The position numbers and the translations under genes are program-made. This document shows, piece by piece, positions 20,039-42,031 of a DNA stretch of 64,000 nt (position 1 is the stretch's first letter; every line of letters begins with the position of its first letter). The DNA is from an uncultured Gammaproteobacteria bacterium. Lineage in GTDB: Bacteria; Patescibacteriota; Microgenomatia; JAMCZE01. The stretch lies in the NCBI GenBank assembly GCA_964641255.1, contig CAZXMM010000001.1, positions 332,302 through 396,301 on the forward strand. The letters run 5' to 3'. Under the pieces are notes generated by a model. It was not told where the DNA came from and ran no database searches. It saw only the letters and a list, made by a program, of their open reading frames with translations.

Positions 20039-20377
20039 CTACCTTTTTTCCGACCGTTTAATTTCTGCTAGTATTTCCCGTTTCACTTTTTCTGACTCAT
20101 CTGTGATCTTTTGCTCAATATCTTCTTTGTGTTTCTTTAAATAGTGAAGGTGCTTTTCGTGGCCCGGCTCGGCATAGAAGGCTTCTAAAAATTCTAAGTG
20201 TTTATCACTTGGCAAATGCTTAAGGATAATCTCCAGTGTCCGGTGGTGATATATTTGGTCTGCCAGCCCAATTATTTCCTCTTTTTCTATTTCATCCAGT
20301 TCGTAGGATTCAATAACCCGCACGACTTCATGAAAGGAGATTAGGTGATCGTAAAAAACTTTCCCTTTAGTTTTCAT
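20039..20377 (-). CDS. hypothetical protein
   Basis: ORF only. Confidence 0.3.
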   Translation of the reverse strand: MKTKGKVFYDHLISFHEVVRVIESYELDEIEKEEIIGLADQIYHHRTLEIILKHLPSDKHLEFLEAFYAEPGHEKHLHYLKKHKEDIEQKITDESEKVKREILAEIKRSEKR

Positions 20378-21308
20378 TGCTATCTGCTAAATACTCACTT
20401 TTCTTAGCCACATTATATTCTACTGGTCCGAGAGATACCTTTTTCTCTGGGTCGTCCAAGAAAAAGAGAATTACCGGGTGATTTTGTTTGCCATAGTTAA
20501 TTCCTAGGTACTGCATTACTTCTGGAGATCCCCCAAAATGTTTGCCCGTGAACCTAGCTGGTCCTGCATCGGCAATGGCCGCCACGACTAGTTTTCCGTT
20601 AGCGGGATTAACAACGACTACCCGGCGATATTTATACCACTGGGCCAACTCTTTAGTATTTGTATTCCAGTCGGGAAGATAGAGAGTTTGCACTGCGACG
20701 TACCATTTTTCCGTGTCAATTAATTCCTGTGTCAGGTTGTCTTTAGAATCTGCGAAATAGCCCCAGGCCCCTCGCCCTGGAGTGATCCCTTTCTCCACTA
20801 GTGCACTGTGCTGCTCAGCACTATCTCCCGGAAAGCGGGGAAGATGTTGTTCGGCCCCCATTCGACCTACGGAGTGGTTTAATTTCTGGCCATCAAGGGT
20901 GGCGCGAACCTGGAGACCATAGGCGTCAAAGATAGCGGCACTAATTCTCTGCTCCTGCTCGGTAGTTATTTGCCAGTCATCCTGCGTCTGTAAATTATCC
21001 GCTAGGGCACTAATTAACTTTTGGTCGGGATTAAGGTTAAAGGCCTCGGAGGAAATATAAGTTTTAGGGTGAGTGGCTTCTACTTTAAGGGGTAGTTGAC
21101 TGGAGAACAATAGGCTGCCGGCGAGCACTCCCGAAGTAAAAATTCGGCCGGCGTGGTCTCTGATTTTACCTGGTCTTAAGCCAAACCTAGTAAAAAAGTC
21201 GGCTGCGGCCGGATTATTTTTAATTAGGGTGGCTTCAGAGACCAGACTTCTAATTTTGAGTCGGGAATGAAGGGCCTCGGGGTTTAGTTTTGGTTTAGTC
21301 TTTGCCAT
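20367..21308 (-). CDS. hypothetical secreted protein with possible RlpA-like double-psi beta-barrel C-terminal domain
   Basis: C-terminal YRRVVVVNPANGKLVVAAIADAGP...GKHFGGSPEVMQYLG loosely resembles DPBB (RlpA/3D) domains; start set to internal Met to avoid overlap with divergent gene. Confidence 0.3.
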   Translation of the reverse strand: MAKTKPKLNPEALHSRLKIRSLVSEATLIKNNPAAADFFTRFGLRPGKIRDHAGRIFTSGVLAGSLLFSSQLPLKVEATHPKTYISSEAFNLNPDQKLISALADNLQTQDDWQITTEQEQRISAAIFDAYGLQVRATLDGQKLNHSVGRMGAEQHLPRFPGDSAEQHSALVEKGITPGRGAWGYFADSKDNLTQELIDTEKWYVAVQTLYLPDWNTNTKELAQWYKYRRVVVVNPANGKLVVAAIADAGPARFTGKHFGGSPEVMQYLGINYGKQNHPVILFFLDDPEKKVSLGPVEYNVAKKSEYLADSNEN

Positions 21309-21376
21309 TGTCACCATTGTGCAGAAATATTGTTGGTTTGACAAGTTCTGGGAAAACTGGTTTAACTAGATTAGTA

Positions 21377-25149: not shown

Positions 25150-26208
25150 ATGACTAGTCTTACCCAAATTGCTTACATTGCTCGTAAAAGTATCAATCTG
25201 GGGATACTGATAATTGTCCTTATCACCATTATTCGCATTGTGGTTGGCTTTGCTTATAGCCTGTGGCAAGAGCGCTTTCCCCCGCCTCCCCCGGCCGCCA
25301 CGGTGGCGTTTGGCAAGCTCCCTTATCCTAGGGGCGAAAACTCTCTAGCTACACCGTCAGCTCTTAGCTACACAGTGGAGACCATCGATGGTACATTGCC
25401 AGTGTTGCCACCAAATTTGGAGGTTTACTTTGTTCCTCAACCCACCGCCAGTTTTGGTACTTTCCAACGAATGACTAGTAAGGCGGGACTATTTGGGTTT
25501 TCGGGAGTTCCCGTAAAGCTTGGTCAAAATGTTTGGAAATTTACTGATCAGACCAATCCCCTGCGGACCATGAATATTGACGAAATAAGCGGTGATTTTC
25601 GGATCGTCTATAACTATGTGGCCGACCCTACTTTGTTTCAAACTAAGGCGTTTATCTCCGACGATCAGGCTATTGGACTGGCACGAAGGGCCTTTAATGA
25701 ACTGTTGGAGGGTTCGGGATACGAGAAATCTGCACCCACTCTGACTTACTACCGTTATGACGCGGGGATCCTGGTTGAGACCACTTCTTTGTCTCAAGCC
25801 GACGCAGTAGCAGTAAGCTTTGTCCATGATCCGATTGGGGAAACCCCCGTGGTGTCACCGGATTTCAAACAAGGACTAGTTTCAGTAATTGTCACTAGCT
25901 CCACTGATCCTAAGCGGCAAGTGTTGGAACTGCGCTATTTCCACGACGCTATTGATTTGGGGAATTTTGCCACTTATCCGGTTATTACCAGTCAGCAAGC
26001 TCTAGAAAAACTCGAATCCCAAGAAGCGATCTTTGCCAGCTTGCCCTCCCAAATCTCCGGACAGGTTACCATTCGGGAAGTGAGCCTGGTCTATATGCTT
26101 TCCTATCCCGCCCAAAGTTACCTACAGCCCATGCTGGCTTTTAGCGACCAACAGGGCTTTATTGCTTATGTCCCTCTGGTCACGCCGGAGTGGCTTGAGG
26201 CACCCTAA
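25150..26208 (+). CDS. hypothetical membrane-anchored extracytoplasmic protein
   Basis: N-terminal TM helix, poly-Pro linker; no recognisable catalytic motif. Confidence 0.4.
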   Translation: MTSLTQIAYIARKSINLGILIIVLITIIRIVVGFAYSLWQERFPPPPPAATVAFGKLPYPRGENSLATPSALSYTVETIDGTLPVLPPNLEVYFVPQPTASFGTFQRMTSKAGLFGFSGVPVKLGQNVWKFTDQTNPLRTMNIDEISGDFRIVYNYVADPTLFQTKAFISDDQAIGLARRAFNELLEGSGYEKSAPTLTYYRYDAGILVETTSLSQADAVAVSFVHDPIGETPVVSPDFKQGLVSVIVTSSTDPKRQVLELRYFHDAIDLGNFATYPVITSQQALEKLESQEAIFASLPSQISGQVTIREVSLVYMLSYPAQSYLQPMLAFSDQQGFIAYVPLVTPEWLEAP

Positions 26209-27241
26209 CCGTTTCGAGCGTTTGTTCCTCCTGGAAGCGTTCTATTGCAAGCTCAATCAGTTTATCGATAAGTTCAGAGTAAGATAGCCCACTCGCCTCC
26301 CAAAGTTTCGGATACATACTACTGTTAGTGAAGCCGGGAATTGTATTGATCTCGTTTACAAGAATTTCACCTCTCGGAGTAAGAAACATATCTACTCTCG
26401 CCATTCCTTCTGCACAGAGCGTAGTAAAGGCTTTAATTGCAACTCCTTGGACTTTCTTAGTTTGTTCTTGTGTCAATTTCGCGGGGATTACTAAAGAGGC
26501 AGCATTCTTGTCCTGGTACTTTGCTTCATAATCATAAAACTCATGATGGGCAATTATTTCTCCAGGAAGGGAAGCTATCGGGCTTTTATTACCCAGTACT
26601 GAACACTCAATCTCCCTCCCCTCAATCATTTGTTCGATGATAATCTTGCGGTCAAAACTGAAAGCTAGCTCAACTCCCTGGTTAAGTTCACTTTCTTTGT
26701 GAGCCTTAGTGATCCCGACCGATGAACCGAGATTTGCAGGTTTGATAAAACAAGGAAAACCTAGGTGTTCTCTAATCTCTTTGTTGTCGATGGACTCTTT
26801 TGAAGAAAACACAAGAAACTTACCGATTGGAATGCCGGCTTGTTGTAATAATCTTTTCATCACGTCCTTATCCATACCAATCGCTGAGCCCAGAACGCCA
26901 GCTCCAACAAAAGGGATACGAAGAAGTTTTAAAAGACCCTGGATCGTTCCATCTTCGCCGTTCGGGCCATGAAGTACAGGGAAAACAATATCAACCCGCT
27001 CGGGAGTCAGTAGTGAGGTGGGCGTCAGAGTTTTTAACTGATTTTCTGGTTCAAGATCAATTGGTCTGTCAGCGAGGAGCCACTTACCGTGTCGTGTTAT
27101 ACCAATGAAGCTGACCTCATATTTGTTAGGGTCCAAAGCCAAGGCAATATTTCTCGCGGAACTGATTGAAACTGTGTGCTCTGCCGACTGGCCGCCAAAG
27201 ATAATAACAAGCTTTAGCCTACGCTTAGCCGTTCTTTGCAT
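26180..27241 (-). CDS. ddl: D-alanine--D-alanine ligase
   Basis: KLVIIFGGQSAEHTVS..., HGPNGEDGT.QG, C-terminal ATP-grasp motifs (ARVDMFL...NEINTIPGFT). Confidence 0.9.
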   Translation of the reverse strand: MQRTAKRRLKLVIIFGGQSAEHTVSISSARNIALALDPNKYEVSFIGITRHGKWLLADRPIDLEPENQLKTLTPTSLLTPERVDIVFPVLHGPNGEDGTIQGLLKLLRIPFVGAGVLGSAIGMDKDVMKRLLQQAGIPIGKFLVFSSKESIDNKEIREHLGFPCFIKPANLGSSVGITKAHKESELNQGVELAFSFDRKIIIEQMIEGREIECSVLGNKSPIASLPGEIIAHHEFYDYEAKYQDKNAASLVIPAKLTQEQTKKVQGVAIKAFTTLCAEGMARVDMFLTPRGEILVNEINTIPGFTNSSMYPKLWEASGLSYSELIDKLIELAIERFQEEQTLETVRVPQATPA

Positions 27242-27382: not shown

Positions 27383-28147
27383 ATGATGGGGCCAGACCAC
27401 ACCCTTGAATCTGCGCTAACTATCTTGGGATTAACAGCAAAAGAAAGGCGTTTCTTTTTAAGTAACTTTAATCTCGGCCCAGCAACCATTGATGAAGTGG
27501 CAATTTCAGCACGTCTTCAGCGTTCTGGAGCGTATTTGATTGCCAAGAACCTCTTACAAAAGGGGTTTCTTCGTGAAGATCTCCACTCTTACCGCAAGAA
27601 TGTCTATACTGTGCCTCCAGAAGATATTCTTCGTCGCCTAGCCGGAAAGCAACGTTTTTTAAGGCGGGAAGAGGTAAGTTTTACAGAGGCGCTTCCTCAA
27701 TTACATAATATGTATGCTAATAATGATATTCGGCCGAAGGTTCAAGTATTTGAGGGTAGTTTCGGACTTCGTTCTGTGTGGCAAGATGTCCTTACCCTCA
27801 AACAAGAGGTCCTTTTGTGGTCTAACCAGGAAACTGAAAGCAGTTTTTTTACTCCCGAATTTCATGCAGCATTTATAAGCGAGCGTCAAAAAAAGGGAAT
27901 TACCATCAGGGTATTGGCAGTAAACAACGAAAAGGGACAGAGTTTGCAAAAAAATGACCAGACAAGTTTGCGACAGACCCTTCTTCTCCCTAATAACGTT
28001 GATTTCAGTGCCGAGACTTACATTTATGGCCATAAGATTGCCATTATTGATCATAAAAAGGACATAATCGGGGTAATTATTGAGAGTGAGCCTATTGCTG
28101 CGGCCCAGAGAGCTATCTTTGAACTAAATTGGAGTCAATTAGTTTAA
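27383..28147 (+). CDS. TrmB-like transcriptional regulator (wHTH + C-terminal domain)
   Basis: N-terminal wHTH resembling TrmB family; weak. Confidence 0.45.
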   Translation: MMGPDHTLESALTILGLTAKERRFFLSNFNLGPATIDEVAISARLQRSGAYLIAKNLLQKGFLREDLHSYRKNVYTVPPEDILRRLAGKQRFLRREEVSFTEALPQLHNMYANNDIRPKVQVFEGSFGLRSVWQDVLTLKQEVLLWSNQETESSFFTPEFHAAFISERQKKGITIRVLAVNNEKGQSLQKNDQTSLRQTLLLPNNVDFSAETYIYGHKIAIIDHKKDIIGVIIESEPIAAAQRAIFELNWSQLV

Positions 28148-28867
28148 TCTGGTTGGGGTAGTGCCACGTACAACCACTCGGGTCGATTGTGAAGGGTCAA
28201 TATTAAAAAGGGCACTCTTATTTTCACTGAGAACTGGATTGGTCCAGGCAAATAAAGTGCCAGCATCGCTGACGCTGAGATTGACACAACCATGTGAGCG
28301 GGGGAAGCCAAAGTCGTTATGCCAATAGGCTCCGTGAATTCCATAACCGCCGTGGAAGTATTGGACGTAAGGAACGTTGGGTAAATTGTAGTAGCTCCCG
28401 TCACTTATTGAACCACCGCTCATTCGTTGGGACAGTAGTTTTGCCCAGATTCTAAATTCTCCAGTAACTGTGGGGGTCCAAGGATTTCCCGAACTAATGG
28501 GGAAGTGATAAATTAGTTTATTGCCCTCATAGGCCGAGAGAGTTTGGGTAGTTAGGTCAACATAAATCCACTTTTCCTCAGTGTATTCACCCAAGACTGC
28601 TCCAGAAAACCCTTTGAGCAGTGCCCCCCAATCAGTAATTGGTGAAGCAACTTCTTGATTGTGCCACAGGCCCTTTTTAGCTTCGGTATCGACTTCTCCA
28701 CTGGAGTTTAAAATTTGGGCTAAATAGGTCTCGCTAAGGAGCTCGTCCTGTTGAACTTCGTGTCTTTGCTGCCACGAGGTAGCCAGGTTGGTTAGCCCGG
28801 GCTTAAATGCGGCTAGCACTAAGCCCACAACTGCTGTAAGAGTCAAAATGGTGACGAGTCGTAACAT
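28139..28867 (-). CDS. L,D-transpeptidase (YkuD domain)
   Basis: TM anchor; catalytic H...GC motif (IHGAYWHN...SHGCVNL). Confidence 0.8.
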   Translation of the reverse strand: MLRLVTILTLTAVVGLVLAAFKPGLTNLATSWQQRHEVQQDELLSETYLAQILNSSGEVDTEAKKGLWHNQEVASPITDWGALLKGFSGAVLGEYTEEKWIYVDLTTQTLSAYEGNKLIYHFPISSGNPWTPTVTGEFRIWAKLLSQRMSGGSISDGSYYNLPNVPYVQYFHGGYGIHGAYWHNDFGFPRSHGCVNLSVSDAGTLFAWTNPVLSENKSALFNIDPSQSTRVVVRGTTPTRLN

Positions 28868-29735: not shown

Positions 29736-29784
29736 GTTTTCGTGCGTATTGCTAAATAGCAGGTCATCCGTGATAATTGTTCTT

Positions 29785-31866
29785 ATGGCCCAAGCAATTG
29801 ACGAAATCATTAAAAATAGGAAAGAAAAATTGGAAAAACTTGAGGCTGTGGGCCTGTCAGGATTTCCCGCTTGGGAAGGGGTGCGCGAGCCCATCGCCGT
29901 AGTCAGAGAGAAGAAACAAGCCGCAGCGGCTAGTGTGGTGGGCAGGATCAGCGCAATAAGGGGACACGGAAAATTAGTTTTTCTTGATTTAATTGATGAA
30001 AGTGGGAAAATCCAGATCTCCTTTAAGCCCGATAACTTAGGCAAAGCCTTTACTAACATCTCTCTCCTTGATATGGGCGATTTTATCAGTGCTTCGGGAT
30101 CACTTTATACCACGGAAGCAGGAGAACTGACGATCGAAGCCGCCAAATTTTCACTGTTAACCAAAGCGCTGCGGCCCCTACCCTCTAGTTGGTACGGATT
30201 TAATGATGTAGAAGAACGGTACCGGCAACGGTATGTAGATCTGCTCGTTAACCCCGAAGTTAAAGAAGTTTTCTTGGTGCGGACGAAAATCACTAAGCTT
30301 CTTAGGCAAAAACTTGACGCTGCCGGCTTTACTGAGGTAGAGACACCAGTGTTACAGCCGCTCTATGGTGGAGCTACCGCCAAGCCATTTATAACCCATC
30401 ATAACGCCCTAGACATCGATCTCTACTTGCGTATCTCTGACGAACTTTATTTGAAACGTTTAATTGTTGCTGGCTTTGAAAAAGTCTATGAGATTGCCAA
30501 AGATTTTCGTAACGAAGGCATCGATCGTCAACACAACCCCGAGTTTACTATGCTCGAGTTTTATTGGGCCTACGCTAACTATGAGGACTTAATGAAATTT
30601 ACTGAAGAGATGCTGTCAGCTATTGTTAAGGAGATAAAAGGAAGTTATAAATTTGTCTATCAAGGGCAGGAATACGACTTTACTCCACCGTGGCCAAGAG
30701 TTAGCTTCCGAGATCTTATTAAGGCAGATACCGGTATCGATATAAATGTTGCAAATACAGAGGGAAAGCTACTTGCTGCCATAAAAAAGACCGAGACTAA
30801 GCTGGATTTGGAAGGTGTAGTGGGCTATGCCGCACTTCTAGACACTTTTTATAAAGTGGTTAGTCGTCCCAAAATTATTGGGCCACTTTTTCTTTATGAC
30901 CACCCGGTCGAATCCAAGCCACTGGCCAAGAAAAAAGCAACCGACCCATCCAAAGCCGCCAGCTTCCAACTGTTAGTAGGTGGATTTGAATGGCTCAATG
31001 CTTATAACGAACTCAATGATCCTATTGATCAGCGGGCCAGATGGGAAGAGGAACTAAAACTAGCAGAACTGGGGTCTGAGGAGTTTCAGATGATTGACGA
31101 GGATTACATTCGGGCGCTGGAATATGGGATGCCACCAACTGCTGGTTGGGGAATGGGAATTGATCGGATGACCGCTTTTCTTACTGATCAACATACCATT
31201 AAAGATACGATTTTGTTCCCCACTATGAAGCCAGAACACCCCCCTGGTACTAGGCCGGCTAGTGTGGTGGTAACCCCGCAAGTAAAAGGGACGCCTTTAT
31301 CATTGACGAGAGAGCGGGCCATAAAACTTCTTCATGACAAGGTGCAAAATGAAAATTTGCGGCGCCACTCCTATAGCGTGGAAGCAGTAATGAGAGCTCT
31401 AGCTAGAAAGCTGGGGGGAGACGAGGACAAGTGGGGGCTACTTGGCCTCCTTCATGACGGCGATTATGAACTAACCAAGGACGCGATCCAAAAACATACT
31501 ATTCTCATGATGGACTGGCTCAAAGAATTGGGGGAAACGGATAGGGAGTTTATTCAAGCGTTTGAATCGCACAATCATGAGCGAACTGGATTTAACGAGC
31601 CAGTCACACTAATGGAGTGGGCCTTATTTTGCTGTGACGAGTTAACCGGACTCATTGTGGCAGTAACCTTAATTCAACCCTCAAAGAAGATTGCTGATGT
31701 AACAGTGGAAGGAGTCTTAAAGAAATGGAAACAAAAGGGTTTTGCTGCTGGAGCTAATCGAAAAGATATTGAGCAGTGCGAAGTGCGATTGAGAATCCCA
31801 CTGCCTGAGTTTATTGCTCTTACTCTTTCGGCTATGCAAGCAATTGGACCCCAAATTGGGTTATGA
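29785..31866 (+). CDS. lysS: lysine--tRNA ligase (class II) fused to C-terminal YqeK-like HD phosphohydrolase domain
   Basis: LysRS anticodon-binding and class II core (motif 2/3; ...GIDRMTAFLTDQHTIKDTILFP) through ~residue 495, then ~195 aa with HD-domain ligands RRHS, LLHDGDYE, HNHE, CCDEL arranged as in YqeK-type HD hydrolases. Confidence 0.75.
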   Translation: MAQAIDEIIKNRKEKLEKLEAVGLSGFPAWEGVREPIAVVREKKQAAAASVVGRISAIRGHGKLVFLDLIDESGKIQISFKPDNLGKAFTNISLLDMGDFISASGSLYTTEAGELTIEAAKFSLLTKALRPLPSSWYGFNDVEERYRQRYVDLLVNPEVKEVFLVRTKITKLLRQKLDAAGFTEVETPVLQPLYGGATAKPFITHHNALDIDLYLRISDELYLKRLIVAGFEKVYEIAKDFRNEGIDRQHNPEFTMLEFYWAYANYEDLMKFTEEMLSAIVKEIKGSYKFVYQGQEYDFTPPWPRVSFRDLIKADTGIDINVANTEGKLLAAIKKTETKLDLEGVVGYAALLDTFYKVVSRPKIIGPLFLYDHPVESKPLAKKKATDPSKAASFQLLVGGFEWLNAYNELNDPIDQRARWEEELKLAELGSEEFQMIDEDYIRALEYGMPPTAGWGMGIDRMTAFLTDQHTIKDTILFPTMKPEHPPGTRPASVVVTPQVKGTPLSLTRERAIKLLHDKVQNENLRRHSYSVEAVMRALARKLGGDEDKWGLLGLLHDGDYELTKDAIQKHTILMMDWLKELGETDREFIQAFESHNHERTGFNEPVTLMEWALFCCDELTGLIVAVTLIQPSKKIADVTVEGVLKKWKQKGFAAGANRKDIEQCEVRLRIPLPEFIALTLSAMQAIGPQIGL

Positions 31867-32471
31867 TAAGGAAGAAAAATGATATGACCAGAGACGAACT
31901 ACTAAAAGCTCTAAACGCCCTTGTCAAAAATGACAACCTCAAACGCCACCATCTGGCAGCAGCAGCTTGTATGAAAGGTATCGCCCTGTACCTAAAAGAT
32001 CAGGATAAGAAAAAATATAAGGGTATTGATGAGGCAATGTGGGAAGCCGTAGGTCTCCTCCACGATGCCGATTACGAACGTACCAAGGATCGTCCGGTTG
32101 AACATGGCATGATTGTAATTGACGAAGTTAGATCTTTTGGTATTGAGCTTCCAAGTGACGTAGCTCAAGCGATTAAATTTCATAATTTTGAAAATACCCA
32201 TGCGACCGAATCACCAATGGGTTGGGCCATCTATACATGTGACCCCCTGACCGGGTTGATCGTTGCCTGCGCTCAAACCACACCCGATCACAAACTGGCA
32301 GGAGTAAGTTTGGAAATGCTTTCGGAAAAATTTAACGATACCAGTTTTGCCAAAGAAGTCTCTCGTGACAAAATTAAACTGTGCGAAGAGAAGCTGGCAA
32401 TAAAGCTGGAAGATTTCCAAAAAATTTGTCTTACGGCAATGCTGACAGTTGCTGAGGAAATTGGGTTGTGA
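31863..32471 (+). CDS. standalone YqeK-like HD domain phosphohydrolase (paralog of lysS C-terminal domain)
   Basis: Collinear similarity to the LysRS C-terminal extension (NLKRHH, GLLHDADYE, FHNFENTHA, YTCDPLTGLIVA, ...EEIGL); start overlaps lysS stop (ATGA). Confidence 0.6.
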   Translation: MIRKKNDMTRDELLKALNALVKNDNLKRHHLAAAACMKGIALYLKDQDKKKYKGIDEAMWEAVGLLHDADYERTKDRPVEHGMIVIDEVRSFGIELPSDVAQAIKFHNFENTHATESPMGWAIYTCDPLTGLIVACAQTTPDHKLAGVSLEMLSEKFNDTSFAKEVSRDKIKLCEEKLAIKLEDFQKICLTAMLTVAEEIGL

Positions 32472-33263: not shown

Positions 33264-34541
33264 ATGCTTGATATTAAATTCATCAGAGACAACCGAGACA
33301 AAGTTAAATTAGGAACAAAAAATAAGAATGGTGACCCGAGTAAGGTCGACGAGGTTATTGCTTTAGATGAAGCCTATCGTAAACTGCTTGGGCAAGTGGA
33401 AATACTGAGAAGTGAGCGCAATAAGGCAAGCAAAGAGGACCGAGAAAAGGGTAAGGAAATAAAGGCCAAACTAAAGGAAATCGAACCCCAGCTTAAAAAA
33501 GTCGAAGACGAACTAGCCACCACGATGAGACATATTCCCAATATGCCTTTTGACGAAGTTCCGGTGGGTAAAGATGATTCCCAAAATGTTGTAGTTCGCA
33601 AATGGGGCGAACCTAAAAAGTTTAGTTTTACTCCTAAAGATCACGTCGAATTAGGAGAGAAATTGGGAATCCTTAACCTGGAAACTGCAGGCAAAGTTTC
33701 TGGCACTAGATTCGGCTACCTAATGGGTGATTTAGCAAGAATGGAAATGGCTTTAGTCCAGTTTGCCTTTGATGTTCTTACAAACGAAGAGGTCCTGACC
33801 AGACTTGCTAGTGGGTACAATTCTAAGCCGTTTGTCCCTGTGATCCCGCCCGTCATGATTAAGCCTGAGGTTTACATTCGGATGGCCAGACTTGACCCTG
33901 GTCAGGAGGTGGAGCGCTATTATATGCCAAAAGATGACATCTATCTGATTGGTAGTGCCGAACACACCCTGGGTCCACTCCATATTGACCAAACCCTAGA
34001 AGAGCCAATTCTGCCCATAAGATATGTTGGATTCTCCACTGCTTTTAGACGAGAAGCTGGGTCTTACGGAAAAGATACCAAGGGAATCCTTAGAGTTCAC
34101 CAATTCGATAAGGTGGAAATGGAGACATTTACTGTTGAAGAAGACTGCGTTAAAGAACAAGACTTCTTGGTAGCTATTCAAGAATACATTATGCAAGCTC
34201 TGGAATTACCTTACCAGGTTGTTATGGTTTGCACTGGTGATATGGGGACTCCCGATGCTAGACAAATTGATGTTGAGACCTGGCTTCCGGGACAAAATAG
34301 ATATCGTGAGACTCATTCCGCTGATTTAGTGACTGACTACCAGTCTCGTCGACTAAATATCAAGGTGAAAAGGAAAAATGGCCAAACCCAACTGGTTCAT
34401 ATGAATGATGCCACGGCAATAGCCATCGGAAGAACCCTGATCGCAATTATTGAGAACTATCAAAACGAAGATGGGAGCATCACTATTCCCAAAGTTTTAC
34501 AAAAATATTTAGGCAAAGAGAAAATTCTTCCCAAATCTTAA
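33264..34541 (+). CDS. serS: serine--tRNA ligase
   Basis: N-terminal coiled-coil tRNA-binding arm plus class II core motifs; 425 aa. Confidence 0.9.
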   Translation: MLDIKFIRDNRDKVKLGTKNKNGDPSKVDEVIALDEAYRKLLGQVEILRSERNKASKEDREKGKEIKAKLKEIEPQLKKVEDELATTMRHIPNMPFDEVPVGKDDSQNVVVRKWGEPKKFSFTPKDHVELGEKLGILNLETAGKVSGTRFGYLMGDLARMEMALVQFAFDVLTNEEVLTRLASGYNSKPFVPVIPPVMIKPEVYIRMARLDPGQEVERYYMPKDDIYLIGSAEHTLGPLHIDQTLEEPILPIRYVGFSTAFRREAGSYGKDTKGILRVHQFDKVEMETFTVEEDCVKEQDFLVAIQEYIMQALELPYQVVMVCTGDMGTPDARQIDVETWLPGQNRYRETHSADLVTDYQSRRLNIKVKRKNGQTQLVHMNDATAIAIGRTLIAIIENYQNEDGSITIPKVLQKYLGKEKILPKS

Positions 34542-34664
34542 TTTCATTCTAGCCTACTCCAAAGGGATGTCTCCTTTTTCAGAAAAGTTTGTCATTGACA
34601 TTCCGAGTTTGTTTGTTACTCTTTAAAAGTTATTAAAAATTTCAGCTTAATCTGAAGCAAAATT

Positions 34665-35693
34665 GTGGAGCAAAATAAATTAGTAAAAGTCACGGTTCTT
34701 TACAACGAAATCCAAGCGCTTCCTTACCAAGATTCTTCTGCTAATCTGACAGTTGACGGTGCCAAGGACGACGCCGTACTGATCGCCAAATCCTTAGCTG
34801 AGAAGGGTTATACCACTGACCTCTTTCAATTAACTAATCAGAATCAAACAGAACTAAAGGATTATCCAACGACAATTTTTTTTAATTTATGTGACGGCAT
34901 TGGTGACGTACCCAATTCTGAAGCCGAGGTGCCCAGATTACTAGAGTCTTATGGCCGTTTTTATACTGGGGCGGGACAGGAGGGAATGATTAAAACCACC
35001 CAAAAAGCCCAAACTAAGGCTATCTTTAGTTCTTTGGGGGCCCTGACTCCCGAATTTGCCGTCGTAAACCAGGTTCCTACGGTCCTACCCAGTGGACTTA
35101 GCTTCCCTCTATTTGTTAAGCCTCAAGGTCAAGACTGTAGTATTGGTATTACCCAAGAGTCAGTAGTTGAGGATCTCATTAGTTTGCAGCGAGAAGTAAA
35201 GCGTATTTTAGATTCCTACGCCGGGTCAGTTTTGATCGAACGCTATATTGAGGGTCGGGAAGTGAACCTAACGCTGGTTGATAATGGTTTGGATGTTACT
35301 ATGCTGCCAATTTCAGAAATTGTCTTTGGCGATGAAATTACGGCTTACGGGGAAAGAAAGTTTGTTGACTTTAACGCCAAGTGGGAGGAGAACTCCATTA
35401 CCTACAAAAACACAGTCGGTAAGTGTCCAGCGGATTTGCCAAAAGAAGTTCATGACAAGATTAAAGCACTGGCGCTTAAAATCTATCCGGCCGTGGGGGC
35501 ACGCGATTACGCTCGTATCGATATCCGTTTGTCAGCGGATCTTACGCCCTACTTTTTAGAAGTAAATGTTAATCCTGATTTATCACTCGAAGCCGGAGCC
35601 TTTCGTTCGGCGACGGCAGCTGGCTGGGACTATCCGACTTTTATGGAAAAAATTGTTAAGTTTGCTCTCAAGCGCTATTCACTGTCCCAATGA
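34665..35693 (+). CDS. ATP-grasp ligase, D-Ala-D-Ala ligase-like (paralog 1)
   Basis: C-terminal ATP-grasp motifs (IERYIEGREVNLTLV, ARIDIRL...YFLEVNVNP); N-terminal Ddl-like domain lacking canonical Ddl substrate motifs. Confidence 0.6.
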   Translation: MEQNKLVKVTVLYNEIQALPYQDSSANLTVDGAKDDAVLIAKSLAEKGYTTDLFQLTNQNQTELKDYPTTIFFNLCDGIGDVPNSEAEVPRLLESYGRFYTGAGQEGMIKTTQKAQTKAIFSSLGALTPEFAVVNQVPTVLPSGLSFPLFVKPQGQDCSIGITQESVVEDLISLQREVKRILDSYAGSVLIERYIEGREVNLTLVDNGLDVTMLPISEIVFGDEITAYGERKFVDFNAKWEENSITYKNTVGKCPADLPKEVHDKIKALALKIYPAVGARDYARIDIRLSADLTPYFLEVNVNPDLSLEAGAFRSATAAGWDYPTFMEKIVKFALKRYSLSQ

Positions 35694-36742
35694 AGAAAAA
35701 ATCCTTAACAAGTGTCATCATCCTTTACAACCGGGTTAGTGGCGAGACTACTGCACCAGCGTCTCTAGCCGATGAGGATACTATCTGGACTGCCGTTGAG
35801 GCCCAAAAGGCGCTGGTATCTTTAGGCTACCGGGCAGAGCTGTTGGAAGTCACGGTGGATAATATAACTCGTCTTAACGAAGCTAGGGGTGATGTGTTTC
35901 TGAATTTAGCTGAGGGGATCGGCAGTCTCCCAAAGAGCGACTATCTAGTTGCTCGGGAGCTAGAAAATCTTAACCGACCATTTACTGGCTGTTCTTCCGA
36001 GGCGCTTCATTTTACTAACGATAAGATCGCTACTAAAGATTTACTGGTGGCACACCAGCTTCCCACCGCTGCCTACCAAGTGTTTAGTAGTGGTGACGTA
36101 TCCGATTTTAGTTTAACCCTCCCAGTAATTGCTAAACCTAGCCGGGAGGATTCTAGCCTGGGAATATCACTCGATTCTGTCGCTACTAATCGGGTTCAGT
36201 TGAAACAAAAAGTGGCGACCCTTAACAAACTTTACTCCGATCCTATTTTAGTCGAAGAGTACATTGACGGCAGGGAACTCAATGTAACGGTGATTGGCTA
36301 CGGCGATCAAGCACTTGCCCTGCCGATTTCAGAAGTGGTTTTTGGAGACTGGTTTAGCGGCAAATACAAAGTGGTCGATTTCTCGGCCAAATGGGAAGAG
36401 GGTACTCCCGCTTTTCAAAATTCCTGGGGAGTTGCACCAGCACAAATTGATGAGCCGACTCGACAGAAAGTTGTAGACTACGCTCTCCTTGCTTACAAAC
36501 TGACTAACTGTCAGGGCTATGCGCGAATAGATTTCCGGTTGGGCACAGACAATGTGCCCTATATTCTTGAGGTTAACGCTAATCCTGGAGTGGCTCCAGA
36601 TTCGGGAGCGGTGCGATCTGCTAAGGCAGCCGGTTATTCTTATGAGAAATTTTTAGAACTGATCATTACTTTAGCTAGGAATCATTATGACCAAGAAGAG
36701 GTCCGTTTATCCCGGTTTGCCAGCACGTTCGCTTTTTCCTAA
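35690..36742 (+). CDS. ATP-grasp ligase, D-Ala-D-Ala ligase-like (paralog 2)
   Basis: Same architecture (VEEYIDGRELNVTVI, ARIDFRL...YILEVNANP); start overlaps previous stop (ATGA). Confidence 0.6.
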   Translation: MKKKSLTSVIILYNRVSGETTAPASLADEDTIWTAVEAQKALVSLGYRAELLEVTVDNITRLNEARGDVFLNLAEGIGSLPKSDYLVARELENLNRPFTGCSSEALHFTNDKIATKDLLVAHQLPTAAYQVFSSGDVSDFSLTLPVIAKPSREDSSLGISLDSVATNRVQLKQKVATLNKLYSDPILVEEYIDGRELNVTVIGYGDQALALPISEVVFGDWFSGKYKVVDFSAKWEEGTPAFQNSWGVAPAQIDEPTRQKVVDYALLAYKLTNCQGYARIDFRLGTDNVPYILEVNANPGVAPDSGAVRSAKAAGYSYEKFLELIITLARNHYDQEEVRLSRFASTFAFS

Positions 36743-36788
36743 GAAACTAGCTTCTCTTCTTTCACCCCATAACAACGAGCTGGTGGTC

Positions 36789-37319
36789 ATGTCCTATTTT
36801 AATGGTCCCTGCCTTTGGGCTAGTGGTATTCAGCAGTCGGGACCCTACATCGAAAAAATGTGGGAGATGGTATTAAAAACCACAGGAGTAAAAAATAGCC
36901 CCTCGGTGCTAGTGATTGGATTTGGCGCCGGGAGTGTTTATAAAGTATTAACAAAGCACTATGCCCCCCAAAGGGTGATTGGTATAGAAATCGACCCACT
37001 CATAATTGAGATCGGTAAAGCTTATTTTGCTATCAAACCTAGCCCAAAGTTGCGCCTTATTTGTGGCGATGCCCAGGAAGAAATTGCTAAACTCCAAGAC
37101 AAGTTTGATCTGATTATTATCGATTTATACAAAGGCGGTCAAAACCAGCTGCGGGCTGGCGTTATGGAGTTGTTGCCCCCTCGTCTAACAGCAGCTGGAG
37201 TGATACTGAGTAATCTGTATGACGATCCCACACCCCATGGCCTTCCCAAGAATCTAAAACTTAATAAAACACTGAGATACAAAAAAAACTATCTTGCTAG
37301 TATTGGTCACGCAAGTTAA
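36789..37319 (+). CDS. spermidine synthase-fold (PABS-like) class I methyltransferase-like protein
   Basis: VLVIGFGAGSV...VIGIEIDP...DLIIIDLY resembles aminopropyltransferase/SAM-MTase Rossmann fold; internal Met chosen because track ORF start overlaps upstream gene by 56 nt in another frame. Confidence 0.45.
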   Translation: MSYFNGPCLWASGIQQSGPYIEKMWEMVLKTTGVKNSPSVLVIGFGAGSVYKVLTKHYAPQRVIGIEIDPLIIEIGKAYFAIKPSPKLRLICGDAQEEIAKLQDKFDLIIIDLYKGGQNQLRAGVMELLPPRLTAAGVILSNLYDDPTPHGLPKNLKLNKTLRYKKNYLASIGHAS

Positions 37320-37345: not shown

Positions 37346-40105
37346 ATGTTGTCTGTTTTTTCAAGACTACTTAACAGTAATGACCGCGAGATAAACTCTT
37401 TTCGTCCTGTGGTCGAAAAGATAAATTTTTTAGAGACTGAAACTAAAAAACTAAAAGCCCAAGATTTTCCTCAGAAGACCGCGGAATTTGGACTCGAGTT
37501 GGAACGGGGTAAGAGTTTGGATGAACTACTTCCGCAAGCCTATGCATTGGTGAGAGAGGCGGCTTTTAGGTCAAATAACACTCGTCCATTTGACGTCCAG
37601 ATTATGGCCGCCATTGCTCTTCATCAAGGTAAGATTGCGGAGCAAAAAACTGGTGAGGGGAAAACTCTGACGGCGGTCTTGGCTCTTTATCTTAACGCTC
37701 TAAGTAAAAGAGGAGTTCATCTGGTCACCGTCAATGACTATTTAGCCAAGGTCGGAGTGGGTTGGATGGGACCGGTGTTTCACTACCTGGGAATGAGCGC
37801 AGCTGCTATTGTCCACGATGCCTCGTTTATCTACGATCCTAATTTTACTGACGATACGGTTTCTGATTCAAGACTAAGACACCTTCGTCCAGTGAGTCGG
37901 AAAGAGGCTTATGCTGCCGATGTTACCTATGGTATCAATAGTGAATTTGGCTTTGATTATCTAAGGGATAATATGGCGCGGACTCTTTCAGAAATGAGTC
38001 AGCGTGATTTCCACTTTGCCATTGTTGACGAGGTCGATTCTGTGCTGATTGATGAAGCCAGGACGCCTCATATTATCTCCGCTCCGGAGGGAGAGGCTAC
38101 TAATAAATACTACGACTATGCCAAAATGGTTGATAAATTAACTCCTACTCTGGACTATGTCATTGATGAAAAACTGCGAACCGCTCATTTGACCGATCAC
38201 GGGGTAGGGAAAATTGAAAGCCTACTGGGGGTAAAGGATATTTATGAAAAAGATTTTGCTACTGTCCATCATATCGAGGCGGCTCTTAAGGCGCGGACAC
38301 TATTTATTAGGGAAAAAGACTACATTGTTAGAGACAATCAGGTGATCATTGTTGACGAGTTTACCGGCCGACTTATGCCCGGTCGAAGATGGAGTGAGGG
38401 GATTCACCAGGCAGTCGAGGCTAAAGAAGGGGTAGCCATTCAGCAGGAAAGTAAAACTCTGGCGACTATTTCGTTGCAGAACTACTTTAGGAAATACGAG
38501 AAATTGGCCGGTATGACAGGAACTGCGGCTACCGAGTCGGAAGAATTTCACAAAATCTATGGACTTGAGGTGGTAGTTATACCAACAAACAATCCCATGA
38601 TTAGGAAAGATCTGGCGGACTCGGTTTATAAAACTCAGCGGGCCAAGTATGGAGCAGTGGTTAAAGAAATCGAGGAAGCCCACCACAGGGGTCAGCCAGT
38701 ATTAGTGGGTACCACTTCAATCGATAAAAACGAAATTATTTCGCAACTTTTAAAGCACAAAGGTATTGTTCACCAAGTGTTAAACGCGAAGCAACACGAA
38801 AAAGAGGCGCTGATCATTTCTCAAGCGGGCAAGAAGGGTGCAGTGACAGTAGCAACGAATATGGCTGGTCGGGGGGTAGATATTATTCTTGGTGGTAATG
38901 CACCAACCTTTGCTGATGGTCGGCCAATGATTGACTCCCCGCAGTGGAAAAAATGGCAAAAAGATCACGACGAGGTTGTCGCTCTTGGTGGGCTCCACGT
39001 CATTGGCACCGAGCGTCATGAATCGCGCCGGATTGATAATCAGTTACGAGGGAGATCAGGTCGGCAAGGTGATCCTGGGTCAAGTCGGTTTTTTGTCGCT
39101 CTGGACGATGATATTATGAGATTGTTTGGTGGCGACCAGGTCAGTAAATTAATGACCTTCTTTAACATCCCTGAGGATCAACCCCTAGAACACAACATTG
39201 TTTCCAAAGCTATTGAGTCAGCCCAATCAAAAGTGGAGCAGTTTCACTTTGATTCCAGGAAGCACCTACTGGAATACGATGATGTTATGAACAAACAGCG
39301 AGAAATAATTTATGCCCGAAGACGAAAAATTCTTGATTTTCCCATCGATCCAAGCGTGGTGACTACTAAAGGCGCTTCTAAGATCGGTGCTGACGCTAAC
39401 AAGCTGAAAGAAGAAGTGGTGGCTAAAATTTCCCAGGAAATAGCGCTGCTGGTAGCAGCAGAATCAACGACCCCACTGGTTGACGAATTAGCGACTATTA
39501 TTCCTTTTGACGACAATTCGAAGCAGGGGTTAGCTGCCGAACTTACTAAACGACCGACAGTTGAGGCTAAAACTACCTTTTTACAAAATCTCGCCAGGGA
39601 AATTTATGATCAGCGGGAAAAACAAATTGGTGCTGCCATGGCAAGATATATTGAACAACAAGAAAGCCTGCGAGTGATCGATTCTTTGTGGATGGAGCAC
39701 TTAGAGTCAATTGACGACCTGCGTGAAGGGATTGGACTGCGGGGTTATGCCCAGCGTAACCCGCTAGTTGAGTATAAATCCGAAGCTTTTACTATGTTTG
39801 AAAAATTACTCGCGGCTATGGACTATGAAATTGTCCACCGGATCTTTAAGGTGGCAGTGGTTTCCACTAGCGATGCTGAAAAAATCAGGCAGCAAATGGT
39901 TACTAATGCAGCGCAAATTGAAAATGTACCAGCGTTGAAGCAAGAGCCAGAGGGTAAGAATCAGGGCAAAGCTGAAAAATCAATTCCCCTGACTCACCCC
40001 AAGGCTCCTGGTCGTAATGATCCCTGCCCCTGTGGCTCTGGACAAAAGTATAAAAAATGTGGTCTAGTTAACTCGGTGGAACACCAAAAACGTATAAGCG
40101 GTTAG
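37346..40105 (+). CDS. secA: preprotein translocase subunit SecA
   Basis: DEAD-like motor motifs, preprotein cross-linking domain, C-terminal zinc-binding CPCGSGQKYKKC; 919 aa. Confidence 0.95.
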   Translation: MLSVFSRLLNSNDREINSFRPVVEKINFLETETKKLKAQDFPQKTAEFGLELERGKSLDELLPQAYALVREAAFRSNNTRPFDVQIMAAIALHQGKIAEQKTGEGKTLTAVLALYLNALSKRGVHLVTVNDYLAKVGVGWMGPVFHYLGMSAAAIVHDASFIYDPNFTDDTVSDSRLRHLRPVSRKEAYAADVTYGINSEFGFDYLRDNMARTLSEMSQRDFHFAIVDEVDSVLIDEARTPHIISAPEGEATNKYYDYAKMVDKLTPTLDYVIDEKLRTAHLTDHGVGKIESLLGVKDIYEKDFATVHHIEAALKARTLFIREKDYIVRDNQVIIVDEFTGRLMPGRRWSEGIHQAVEAKEGVAIQQESKTLATISLQNYFRKYEKLAGMTGTAATESEEFHKIYGLEVVVIPTNNPMIRKDLADSVYKTQRAKYGAVVKEIEEAHHRGQPVLVGTTSIDKNEIISQLLKHKGIVHQVLNAKQHEKEALIISQAGKKGAVTVATNMAGRGVDIILGGNAPTFADGRPMIDSPQWKKWQKDHDEVVALGGLHVIGTERHESRRIDNQLRGRSGRQGDPGSSRFFVALDDDIMRLFGGDQVSKLMTFFNIPEDQPLEHNIVSKAIESAQSKVEQFHFDSRKHLLEYDDVMNKQREIIYARRRKILDFPIDPSVVTTKGASKIGADANKLKEEVVAKISQEIALLVAAESTTPLVDELATIIPFDDNSKQGLAAELTKRPTVEAKTTFLQNLAREIYDQREKQIGAAMARYIEQQESLRVIDSLWMEHLESIDDLREGIGLRGYAQRNPLVEYKSEAFTMFEKLLAAMDYEIVHRIFKVAVVSTSDAEKIRQQMVTNAAQIENVPALKQEPEGKNQGKAEKSIPLTHPKAPGRNDPCPCGSGQKYKKCGLVNSVEHQKRISG

Positions 40106-42031
40106 TCGATTCCTAAGTCTTCGTAAATCCATTTTTGAAAGTTGTAGCAATGCCACAACAAAGAAAAAACAAATAGCAAAACTTGCTTGGGGAGTTTGAA
40201 CGACAAGTTTTAAACGGTCCATTAAAATAACGAAAAGATTTTGTTTAAATGTACCGCTAAGAATATACATTGCGGTAACACTTCCTGGGGCAGTTTTGAT
40301 AGCAACCTGGTCATCTTGTCTGCCACCGATTTGCCGGAGCTTAACTGTATAACGCTGACCCTTAGAATCAGTAAGAGGGGAAAACCCGAATTGGAAATAT
40401 GGTTGGATGTCTGTCAGGTAGGCTGTGCTTTTGGAAGAAGCGAGAAGCTTGTGCTTAGATTCGTTATAAAGCTCAAAGAGAAGTTGGGCTGGCTTTAGAT
40501 TTAATTGTTGTGTCCTACCAGAGTCACCAATGTATCTCGTGTTGAAGCTGATGATACTCAAGTTCGGTGCTGTAGCTACAAAAGAAAAAGTTACCGGTGC
40601 GGTTTTCAAGGCAATTTCTGGTGGTGTTACAGACCCTTGTTTGACTTCAAATAAGTCATGAATAAAAGAGTTGGAGAAACGGGCCAAATAAACGGCACCG
40701 ACCATGGTACTTAGTAGTAGAGCTACTAAAAAAGCTTGATACCAGGGTGTCCGCTTGTTTTTTTGATTTGTCAGTACCGAAAGCTTAGTGCTTGATGATT
40801 TGTGTGAGAGAAAGTAGAGCGACTCTACAACGCGATTAAGGAAAAGGGCCACAATTATTGTTAGCAAAGCGGCAGCCGCGAAAGTAAAGGAGTTAGTAGG
40901 GCCAAGACTACTCCTGGTCCACCCGATAACATCTATGTGAATGAGATAGATCGAATAGCTGATGCTTCCAAGAAAGACCAGAAATCGGTTTGAAAACAAC
41001 CAATTGAGAAAACTCTTAGGCTGCAAAACACAAATAAGGGTCGCAGCTATAATCCAGTCAGAAATTAGATAAGTGATTTTACTGCCCAGTACTTCGTGTA
41101 GATTGATAACGCCCAAATAATTTGTTTGCATTAAAACAAAAGCCAACAAAACTATGGCTTTAATTATGGGTAGTTTTAGATTTGCTGCCCAAGCCTCTTT
41201 TGCTAAATCGTGAGTAGTAAAAATTGTTCCGATAAAAGCTCCAACCATAAATCCGGTAAATCTTGAAACTTGGATCACTCCTAATTTACCGAGCGGCAAC
41301 ATGGCATCGTCTAGGTCAAAAACTATTTTGGTTAAACAAGTTATGACAACTATTGTTCCTATTATTCCCCAGCGCTTTCCTAAACGAATGAGTGGTAGGG
41401 CGAAAACTGGGAATAGAATGTAAAACACTATTTCCGGTGTTAAACTCCAAAATTGTTCGCGCATCAAACTGGTTTGGTCGAACAGGGGGGTGGTAAGTGT
41501 GAGGTTGGCTAAAAGCTGCAGCATTGATTGAAAATTTGGGATGTGTACGGCCCAATTGGGTCGGGAGCCGAGGAGCCCAAAAAAACTGAGTACAAAAACC
41601 TGTAATCCAATAAACAACAGAAAAAATATTTGCCCACTTGGAAATAGTTTTCGTAGGCTATGCCAAATTACAAAGGTTGACAATGCCACAAGAGCAAGTA
41701 TTACTAACTGGATAGGCCATTGTAAAATTTTCAGCTGGTCAATAGTCCAAGCATAGATAACAACAACTCCTACTAAAGGGAAAATTCGAAAATAGCGTTT
41801 CTGGATGAATTCCAACGCGTCGGGGATTTTAGGATACAAGTGAGCCATGAGAAAACCACTAAGAATGAAAAAAATTTGAACGGAGTTGGTGCTGTTGGAA
41901 AAAAAAGCAAAAATAGTTGATAGTATTGGCCGATCAAGAAGTGGAACACCGAGTGTCCCAAGATGGCCTAAAACCACACTCATAGCTGCAAACCCCCGAA
42001 TTCCGTCAAGTGCTTCTAATCGACGTTTCAT
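40064..42031 (-). CDS. acyltransferase 3 family O-acyltransferase with C-terminal extracytoplasmic domain
   Basis: N-terminal LDGIRGFAA...GHL motif and ~10 TM helices typical of acyltransferase_3 (OatA-like); 3' end overlaps secA by 42 nt (convergent). Confidence 0.7.
   Translation of the reverse strand: MKRRLEALDGIRGFAAMSVVLGHLGTLGVPLLDRPILSTIFAFFSNSTNSVQIFFILSGFLMAHLYPKIPDALEFIQKRYFRIFPLVGVVVIYAWTIDQLKILQWPIQLVILALVALSTFVIWHSLRKLFPSGQIFFLLFIGLQVFVLSFFGLLGSRPNWAVHIPNFQSMLQLLANLTLTTPLFDQTSLMREQFWSLTPEIVFYILFPVFALPLIRLGKRWGIIGTIVVITCLTKIVFDLDDAMLPLGKLGVIQVSRFTGFMVGAFIGTIFTTHDLAKEAWAANLKLPIIKAIVLLAFVLMQTNYLGVINLHEVLGSKITYLISDWIIAATLICVLQPKSFLNWLFSNRFLVFLGSISYSIYLIHIDVIGWTRSSLGPTNSFTFAAAALLTIIVALFLNRVVESLYFLSHKSSSTKLSVLTNQKNKRTPWYQAFLVALLLSTMVGAVYLARFSNSFIHDLFEVKQGSVTPPEIALKTAPVTFSFVATAPNLSIISFNTRYIGDSGRTQQLNLKPAQLLFELYNESKHKLLASSKSTAYLTDIQPYFQFGFSPLTDSKGQRYTVKLRQIGGRQDDQVAIKTAPGSVTAMYILSGTFKQNLFVILMDRLKLVVQTPQASFAICFFFVVALLQLSKMDLRRLRNRLTAYTFLVFHRVN

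Follow-up and report, generated by a model that had tools for sequence, protein, structure and literature searches.

We analysed a 64,000-nucleotide stretch of Patescibacterial DNA (contig CAZXMM010000001.1, positions 332,302 to 396,301 of the forward strand; hereafter the window), in which two adjacent genes, gA and gB, each encode an ATP-grasp ligase related to D-alanine-D-alanine ligase (Ddl) and are followed by a gene, ORF3, for a short protein resembling spermidine synthase (SpeE). The two ligases belong to a large family, with branches that we call X and Y, whose members elsewhere are encoded next to, or fused with, lysine 2,3-aminomutase (LAM), and we give an even chance to the reading that gA and gB are amide ligases of this LAM-linked family that act in sequence and build a short, basic pseudopeptide of the (beta-)lysine type. 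It is conceivable, if somewhat short of probable, that the Patescibacterial pair is an offshoot of a pathway running from LAM through X and Y to an N-acetyltransferase, by which over ten bacterial and archaeal phyla, among them the reduced Candidate Phyla Radiation (CPR, the Patescibacteria) and DPANN, would make an N-capped pseudopeptide that contains beta-lysine.

gA and gB are Ddl-fold ligases with intact catalytic residues

A sequence-only reading of this DNA had described gA and gB as consecutive, ATGA-overlapping genes for Ddl-type enzymes that carry the C-terminal ATP-grasp motifs, and the open reading frames (ORFs), the motifs, the overlap, the family match and the structure matches all agree with that description. 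Against PF07478 (Dala_Dala_lig_C), gA scores 101 bits (E 1e-29) and gB 107 bits (E 1e-30), and the best PDB matches of both are solved Ddl structures (E 1.7e-20 for gA, ~1e-21 for gB). An AlphaFold2 model of gB (pLDDT 89.3) was likewise matched best by Ddl structures in Foldseek, over the full length, with TM scores of 0.72-0.85 and 22-24% identity. The two proteins are 36% identical to one another.

Aligned with E. coli DdlB, both proteins retain K97, K144, E180, E187, K215, R255, D257, E270 and N272 (DdlB numbering), the counterparts in gB being K112, K149, E189, E196, K234, R279, D281, E294 and N296. Because all of the ATP, Mg and catalytic residues are retained, both proteins are presumably active, and they should be catalytically competent ligases that form acyl-phosphates. 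That these residues are intact in both also argues against a heterodimer of one catalytic and one dead subunit.

The substrate site departs from that of Ddl

The earlier suggestion that the pair is distinct from the canonical ddl of the window was borne out. gB is 27% identical to the product of that gene; neither gA nor gB matches PF01820 (Dala_Dala_lig_N), whereas the window's orthodox ddl scores 254 and 113 bits, the second of these against PF01820. The best NCBIfam Ddl model, NF002378, has a cut-off of 243 bits, of which gA reaches 124 and gB 144; both proteins also fall far under the cut-offs of all the Van models.

At the D-Ala site, both proteins carry Trp in place of Y216, a change that is invariant in the family, and Gly in place of L282. 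In gA these residues are W240 and G311, and the positions of S150 and S281 are taken by C158 and A310; gB has serines there (S155 and S305). Around DdlB E15 the alignment is accurate to one or two residues, and a conserved Asp or Glu lies no more than one residue away from that position. The X/Y family further has Arg at DdlB positions 259 (M259->R) and 285, an added R-S motif, and acidic residues at DdlB positions 63, 149, 276 and 280, substitutions that would fit a cationic substrate. The roles of these positions are those that we assume from the DdlB-phosphinate structures. As judged from this site, gA and gB are predicted not to be D-Ala-D-Ala ligases. Of the checks proposed in the sequence-only reading, an inspection of the specificity residues showed the D-Ala site to be altered, and a phylogeny, a neighbour-joining (NJ) tree of 61 sequences whose two Ddl outgroups were DdlB of E. 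coli and the Ddl of the window, separated the family from these outgroups in all 100 bootstrap replicates.

A widespread ligase family is linked to LAM and to N-acetyltransferases

gB has 916 relatives in a clustered protein database, the nearest non-self one being 53% identical, and a full HMMER scan returned 871 clusters (at 50% identity) at E<=1e-30. When the species genomes of GTDB were scanned for a sequence pattern, at least 591 loci were confirmed, spread over more than ten phyla of bacteria and archaea; the matches listed include bacterial hosts from the Patescibacteria, Bacteroidota, Ignavibacteriota, Desulfobacterota, Aminicenantes and Planctomycetota and archaeal hosts from the Bathyarchaeia, Thermoplasmatota, Hadarchaeota, Nitrososphaerales, Nanoarchaeota and Aenigmarchaeota. 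A dedicated model is absent from both Pfam and NCBIfam (June 2026), where X and Y proteins match Ddl models below cut-off only. The family can be recognised by a signature of invariant alignment columns (ILYN, FNLxEG, LPISE, AKW, RxDxRL, LEVNxNP and G..RS), which is present in both gA and gB.

For the gene neighbourhoods, we predicted the ORFs of 170 retrieved loci and used marker profiles to assign them, which gave 139 distinct non-CPR loci and 23 CPR loci; many of the contigs behind these counts are incomplete. Ligases are paired at 96 of the non-CPR loci and at 14 of the CPR loci, the tandem arrangement being conserved among Patescibacterial relatives. Outside the CPR, a divergent X ligase as a rule comes first and a Y ligase second, the pair being usually accompanied by genes for a GNAT protein of ~160 aa and a KamA-family radical S-adenosylmethionine (SAM) protein of ~380 aa. 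LAM is found nearby at 106 of the 139 loci and GNAT at 60. In the Ignavibacteriota operon, a gene for an M24 peptidase comes next downstream.

The LAM at one of these loci (L004; L and P numbers are our own labels) matched PDB entry 2A5H at E 6.5e-121. All of the linked LAMs that we examined, the CPR LAM included, keep the CxxxCxxC motif together with both D293 and D330, the two Asp residues that we take to bind the epsilon-ammonium group of lysine and to be lost in glutamate 2,3-aminomutase. By these residues the linked proteins are predicted to be genuine lysine 2,3-aminomutase types, and they score under the NCBIfam cut-offs for AblA and EpmB. The associated GNATs are nearest to N-terminal acetyltransferases of the RimI/RimJ type and gave no match to the AblB model.

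Gene fusions connect all four activities. LAM is fused to X (L037 and L060; Table 1), X is fused to Y in proteins of 608-789 aa with two PF07478 modules (P0177, P0187, P0192 and P0217), and Y is fused to GNAT in proteins of ~505-550 aa (L037, L017, P0180 and P0185). This chain of LAM-X, X-Y and Y-GNAT fusions occurs in archaea and others, and it is strong genomic evidence for what would be a linear path from Lys to beta-Lys, then through (X) and (Y) to N-acetylation. The system is found as a compact operon of four genes in Bacteroidota and, in fused form, as two genes in Thermoplasmatota. The X-Y fusion proteins also fit the earlier suggestion that the two ligases act sequentially. A search of the full-text literature found no description of a system composed of LAM, two Ddl-like ligases and GNAT, although an earlier in silico mention is possible.

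The Patescibacterial pair is a predicted duplication of Y

In the NJ tree, the A and B copies of the CPR are monophyletic in 98 of 100 bootstraps, A, B and Y group together in 98 and X proteins in 99. Mean identity between A and B is 42%, and falls to 36% with Y, 30% with X and 25% with Ddl. Because A and B are monophyletic within the Y clade and show this pattern of identity, gA and gB are predicted to descend from a Patescibacteria-specific duplication of Y. The signature at DdlB positions 276/280-282 usually reads D..GMG in gA and G..xDG in gB, and is unchanged with or without a LAM neighbour.

The order of the window, serS-gA-gB-SpeE-like-secA, recurs at L001, L002, L005 and L011. Other CPR cassettes add genes to it. 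The order is serS-LAM-gA-gB-S66-SpeE-like-secA on three near-identical contigs (L098-L100), serS-gA-[AdoMetDC]-c69-gB-S66-SpeE-like-secA at L006 (AdoMetDC, S-adenosylmethionine decarboxylase; c69, a family described below) and serS-c69-ligase-(S66)-SpeE-like-secA at L092 and L095. A lone ligase precedes secA at L096 and L101, and gA-gB-S66 lies at a different genomic site at L010 and L094. S66 denotes an LD-carboxypeptidase-like gene that is present at 9 of the 23 CPR loci and matches both LD-carboxypeptidase domains strongly; it can be compared with the LdcA/MccF S66 peptidases. The contigs L010-L012 have the arrangement greA-lysS-HD-serS-gA-gB-...-secA, as in the CPR, and their label of 'uncultured Gammaproteobacteria bacterium' looks unreliable.

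In some CPR cassettes, c69 seems to take the place of gA. Its members (Table 1) have no Pfam match but share two motifs, WCGxCxKC and the PP-loop-like SFGKDS; matches to the NCBIfam MurL model score 46 and 24 bits, which is weak beside its cut-off of 700, no MurD2 partner was seen, and in the PDB the only match was an insignificant one to the PP-loop protein MnmA (E 0.4). MurL is an L-to-D epimerase that converts ATP to AMP and acts on the terminal residue of a peptide (PMC8788868). The c69 protein may be a non-orthologous displacement of gA or an epimerase of a terminal residue.

ORF3 resembles a SAM-type methyltransferase

ORF3 matches PF01564 (Spermine_synth) at 40.5 bits over profile positions 8-101 of 186, and also generic methyltransferase models and PF13649 (30.6 bits); its score against the NCBIfam SpeE models is 42 bits, the cut-off being 260. 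It shares with SpeE a class-I Rossmann fold and a remnant of the SpeE-like N-terminal hairpin, but is ~70-90 residues shorter. The sequence-only reading had it lacking the catalytic Asp of SpeE. This was mistaken: ORF3 keeps the EIDP and GDA motifs and D146, the first (catalytic) Asp of D-S-x-D-P, which is invariant in its family, and the residues that it lacks are the second Asp of that motif, replaced by K149, and the Asp of GGGDG. Where SpeE has GGGDGG, ORF3 has GFGAGS in alignments with the human and E. coli enzymes, and its family has GxG(A/C/G)G(S/T), with A, C or G at the Asp position in all CPR members. At the site of the second Asp, the family has an invariant D-x-Y-x-G, which may recall the (D/N)PPY motif of N-methyltransferases. 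The GGGDG Asp is presumably the residue that gives aminopropyltransferases their preference for decarboxylated SAM (dcSAM) over SAM. Because this residue is replaced, ORF3 looks like an amine methyltransferase of the SAM type rather than the dcSAM type, and not like a polyamine synthase; its motifs are not those of the aminopropyltransferase that an automatic reading of the gene would imply.

A single-sequence search returned ORF3 alone, and its relatives were recovered by a profile search, which gave a family of ~54 members, mostly from the CPR; a Bacteroidetes member lies in an unrelated gene context. The SpeE-like gene adjoins the ligases at ~12 of the 15 informative CPR ligase loci. In the slot between serS and secA or bacA, it also occurs where there is no ligase (L172 from Microgenomates and L173 from WWE3), and ligases occur without it (L010, L094, L096 and L101). 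The three-gene cassette proposed from the window alone thus holds as a frequent adjacency but not as a fixed unit, and may in part be synteny. A functional link between ORF3 and the ligases is inseparable from the synteny of the housekeeping block, and we consider it tenable rather than probable.

In Gottesmanbacteria, the neighbour of the SpeE-like gene, encoded on the other strand, is a divergent member of the ligase superfamily. This ligase, of 365 aa, occupies the serS/SpeE-like/secA slot (L175, Table 1; also L176 and L177), scores 96 bits with the Y model against 52 with Ddl, and has LDSNSNP where others have LEVNxNP. The 529-aa SpeE-like ORF of L011 has a C-terminal extension that we considered as FemAB-like; this was dropped for want of Pfam or PDB support.

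A proposed pathway and the observations against it

We infer substrates, order of steps and product as follows. Each ligase would use ATP to phosphorylate a carboxylate and would couple the resulting acyl-phosphate to an amine, by extension from Ddl chemistry. Acting in turn, gA and gB would form two amide bonds and yield a three-unit pseudopeptide around a lysine-type, probably beta-lysine, unit. An amine would be capped by GNAT elsewhere, by a methyltransferase in the Desulfobacterota and possibly by ORF3 in the window. The C-terminal residue would be free and possibly D-configured, as suggested by the S66 gene and the MurL-like candidate epimerase in sister CPR cassettes.

Several observations weigh against such a product. 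The X/Y family is uncharacterised; the residue roles used above are carried over from Ddl by alignment, and the tree rests on two Ddl outgroups. The 64-kb window holds no homologue of LAM, GNAT, S66, the MurL-like c69, AdoMetDC, arginine decarboxylase (ADC), agmatinase or deoxyhypusine synthase (DHS), and with LAM, GNAT, S66 and MurL-like genes all missing from it the link to beta-lysine is here one of homology only. Within CPR cassettes, LAM was found on the three near-identical contigs only, which amount to one population. No X-type partner was seen at any of the 23 CPR loci; X is the partner fused to LAM elsewhere, and with X absent substrates may have shifted after the duplication of Y. 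Lastly, the signature of the window's gA at DdlB positions 276/280-282, D..EAG, is atypical.

Alternative functions of the ligase pair

Among the alternatives, we considered first that the ligases acylate a di- or polyamine that the SpeE-like protein makes or modifies, the amino-acid-polyamine conjugate that had been suggested from the window. The observation most favourable to this idea is a variant in the Desulfobacterota (L007, L008, L014, L016, L020 and L070), in which genes for a DHS-like protein (424 bits against the DHS cut-off of 434), agmatinase and the pyruvoyl arginine decarboxylase PvlArgDC precede X and Y, which are followed by genes for a methyltransferase, a conserved small protein with two transmembrane (TM) segments, two GT4 glycosyltransferases and a second methyltransferase. 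An AdoMetDC gene lies inside the cassette of one related CPR genome (L006) and of that one only, acidic residues are plentiful in the Y-type pocket, and the SpeE-like gene adjoins ligases at most informative CPR loci and again in Gottesmanbacteria. Yet polyamine genes stand beside the pair at only ~5 of the 139 non-CPR loci, against 106 for LAM; the window has no gene for AdoMetDC, ADC, agmatinase or DHS; ORF3 is without the dcSAM-binding Asp of GGGDG and scores far below the SpeE cut-off; and the SpeE-like gene and the ligases each occur without the other. The suggestion thus finds support in a small Desulfobacterota group and one CPR genome, but the dominant partners of the family are LAM and GNAT, and we regard a polyamine conjugate as unlikely. 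We also considered the small Desulfobacterota ORF c49 as a LysW-like carrier or a precursor peptide and ruled this out, as it is a two-TM membrane peptide.

A role in the peptidoglycan of the CPR, in which gA and gB would extend the stem peptide or cross-bridge or rebuild trimmed stems, is quite unlikely. A precedent is Aslfm of E. faecium, an ATP-grasp ligase that attaches D-Asp to the stem peptide. The S66 gene at 9 of the 23 CPR loci, the MurL-like protein of some CPR cassettes, and a YkuD L,D-transpeptidase gene and ddl near the cassette in the window would all suit such a role. Set against these are the abundance of the family in archaea that have no murein (Bathyarchaeia, Thermoplasmatota, Hadarchaeota and Nitrososphaerales), the absence of linkage to mur, mraY or fem genes at every locus sampled, the lack of an S66 or MurL-like gene in the window and the weakness of the MurL similarity (24-46 bits).

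We think it improbable that the pair modifies proteins in the manner of RimK or tubulin-tyrosine ligase (TTL), attaching amino acids to, for instance, a translation component at its C-terminus or on an acidic side chain. Weak matches to the TTL and RimK Pfam models, the likeness of the GNATs to RimI/RimJ, the position of the CPR cassette amid lysS, serS, greA and secA, and the partnership with LAM (compare EpmB) and with DHS-like proteins, which recalls the modification of EF-P and eIF5A, speak for it. Against it, the best matches in sequence and fold are to the small-molecule enzyme Ddl and not to RimK or TTL, no gene conserved in the neighbourhoods is a candidate target, the scores of the LAMs stay under the cut-off for EpmB, and archaea already hypusinate aIF5A. 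Finally, Ddl is the closest characterised family in sequence and fold, but alternative D-Ala-D-X (Van-like) ligases, which had been proposed from the sequence, or redundant Ddl paralogues are barely credible for proteins that fall below every Ddl and Van cut-off and lack PF01820, whose substrate-site residues (Y216->W and L282->G, S281->A and S150->C in gA, family-specific Arg and acidic residues) contradict that role, whose clade separates from Ddl in every bootstrap, whose window already has an orthodox ddl and whose family is present in wall-less archaea.

Comparison with known systems

For the (beta-)lysine-type pseudopeptide that we favour, known enzymes offer partial precedents. With Ddl (E. 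coli DdlB; PDB 2DLN, 1IOW and 4C5A), gA and gB share the three-domain ATP-grasp fold and the ATP, Mg2+ and transition-state residues, and presumably the acyl-phosphate mechanism; they differ in overall sequence (22-27% identity), in the missing PF01820 domain, in Y216W, L282G and S150A/C, in the extra Arg and acidic residues, and in the LAM and GNAT partners of their family. The AblA/AblB route to N-epsilon-acetyl-beta-lysine is similar in that genes related to gA and gB share operons with, or are fused to, those for LAM and GNAT, but the X/Y system has two extra obligatory ligases, a RimI/RimJ-like GNAT and LAMs below the AblA cut-off, and neither the LAM nor the GNAT gene is present in the window.

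Successive ATP-dependent amide bonds are made by glutathione synthetase, by carnosine synthase, by N-acetylaspartylglutamate (NAAG) synthetase with NAT8L, and by Ngg in the synthesis of N-acetylglutaminylglutamine amide (NAGGN). Some of these systems include an N-acetylation step or GNAT-ligase fusions, and carnosine synthase activates a beta-amino acid; they use other ATP-grasp subfamilies, however, and none gave a significant sequence match to gA or gB here. Were the nucleophile a polyamine, as the Desulfobacterota operons suggest, glutathionylspermidine synthetase and the tyramine-glutamate ligase MfnD would be precedents, although no sequence relationship of either to gA or gB was detected and the polyamine context is a minority one.

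Layout of the locus

The three genes lie between serS and secA (Table 1). The stop codon of gA and the start codon of gB overlap as ATGA, read directly in the sequence, and gB is predicted to be translationally coupled to gA through this overlap; gB and ORF3 overlap by 56 nt, and an AGGA motif lies 7 nt 5' of the ORF3 ATG. For a public duplicate of the contig, independent gene calls arrived at the same three products. Neighbouring genes and the closest homologues mark the host as a bacterium of the Patescibacteria/Microgenomates type, with a contig of ~950 kb. An Rfam scan of the cassette returned no family at its gathering score. Promoter- and terminator-like matches in the cassette do not exceed the shuffled expectation and no terminator was found between gA, gB, ORF3 and secA; the three genes probably share a transcript with their neighbours. 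We also considered whether the cassette had been acquired horizontally, but its GC content (0.43-0.45) is no different from that of the rest of the window.

Table 1. Coordinates of the features discussed, in window positions unless a locus label is given
Feature	Position	Strand	Description
gA	34665..35693	+	342 aa, GTG start; Ddl-fold ATP-grasp ligase, predicted Patescibacterial 'A' copy of Y-type
gB	35690..36742	+	350 aa; second Ddl-fold ATP-grasp ligase
ORF3	36687..37319	+	210 aa; short SpeE-like class-I methyltransferase-fold protein
serS	33264..34541		Upstream flank of gA-gB-ORF3
secA	37346..40105		Downstream flank of gA-gB-ORF3
serS-gA intergenic spacer	34542..34664	+	123 nt; without recognisable regulatory RNA
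lysS	29749..31866		Fused to C-terminal HD domain (PF00152 + PF01336 + PF01966)
HD protein	31863..32471		Free-standing paralogue of the lysS HD module
ddl	26180..27241	-	Orthodox Ddl
YkuD gene	28139..28867	-	L,D-transpeptidase
Acyl_transf_3 gene	40064..42031	-	655 aa; membrane protein
Big_7 gene	21302..23656		784 aa; single Big_7 Ig-like domain
ORF	20367..21344	-	325 aa; no family match
ORF	25150..26208		352 aa; no family match
LAM-X fusion	L037:437-2653		738 aa
LAM-X fusion	L060:845-3286		813 aa
Y-GNAT fusion	L037:2678-4258		526 aa
c69	L006:5634-7004		Family of ~450 aa
c69	L092:4507-5868		
c69	L095:4655-5998		
c69	L088:9548-10897		
c69	L152:8497-9888		
Divergent ligase	L175:3498-4595	-	365 aa; Gottesmanbacteria

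Upstream, the lysS gene of the window overlaps by 4 nt the gene for the HD protein, which is 38% identical to the fused HD module (E 2e-41); elsewhere in the CPR, loci carry lysS and the HD protein as two unfused genes. The 3' end of ddl overlaps the convergent 352-aa ORF by 29 nt, and the Acyl_transf_3 gene and secA overlap at their 3' ends by 42 nt.

Significance of the ligase family

What is new here is the finding of Ddl-fold ligases with a predicted new substrate set, in a CPR-specific duplicated form; taken alone, the cassette of the window is modest, but it leads to a large, conserved and experimentally tractable pathway. The family is kept even in episymbiont genomes of ~1 Mb, and the fusions tie it to beta-lysine synthesis. 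Automatic labels ('D-alanine--D-alanine ligase' or 'ATP-grasp protein' for the ligases, 'spermidine synthase' for ORF3) mislead reconstructions of cell-wall and polyamine metabolism in the CPR. The product could be a new and widespread small molecule, such as an osmolyte, a polycation or an envelope constituent, and its synthesis would give Ddl-fold enzymes a new class of substrate. If the proposed pathway is correct, its product would be a metabolite or cell constituent that is common among microbes and has so far been overlooked.

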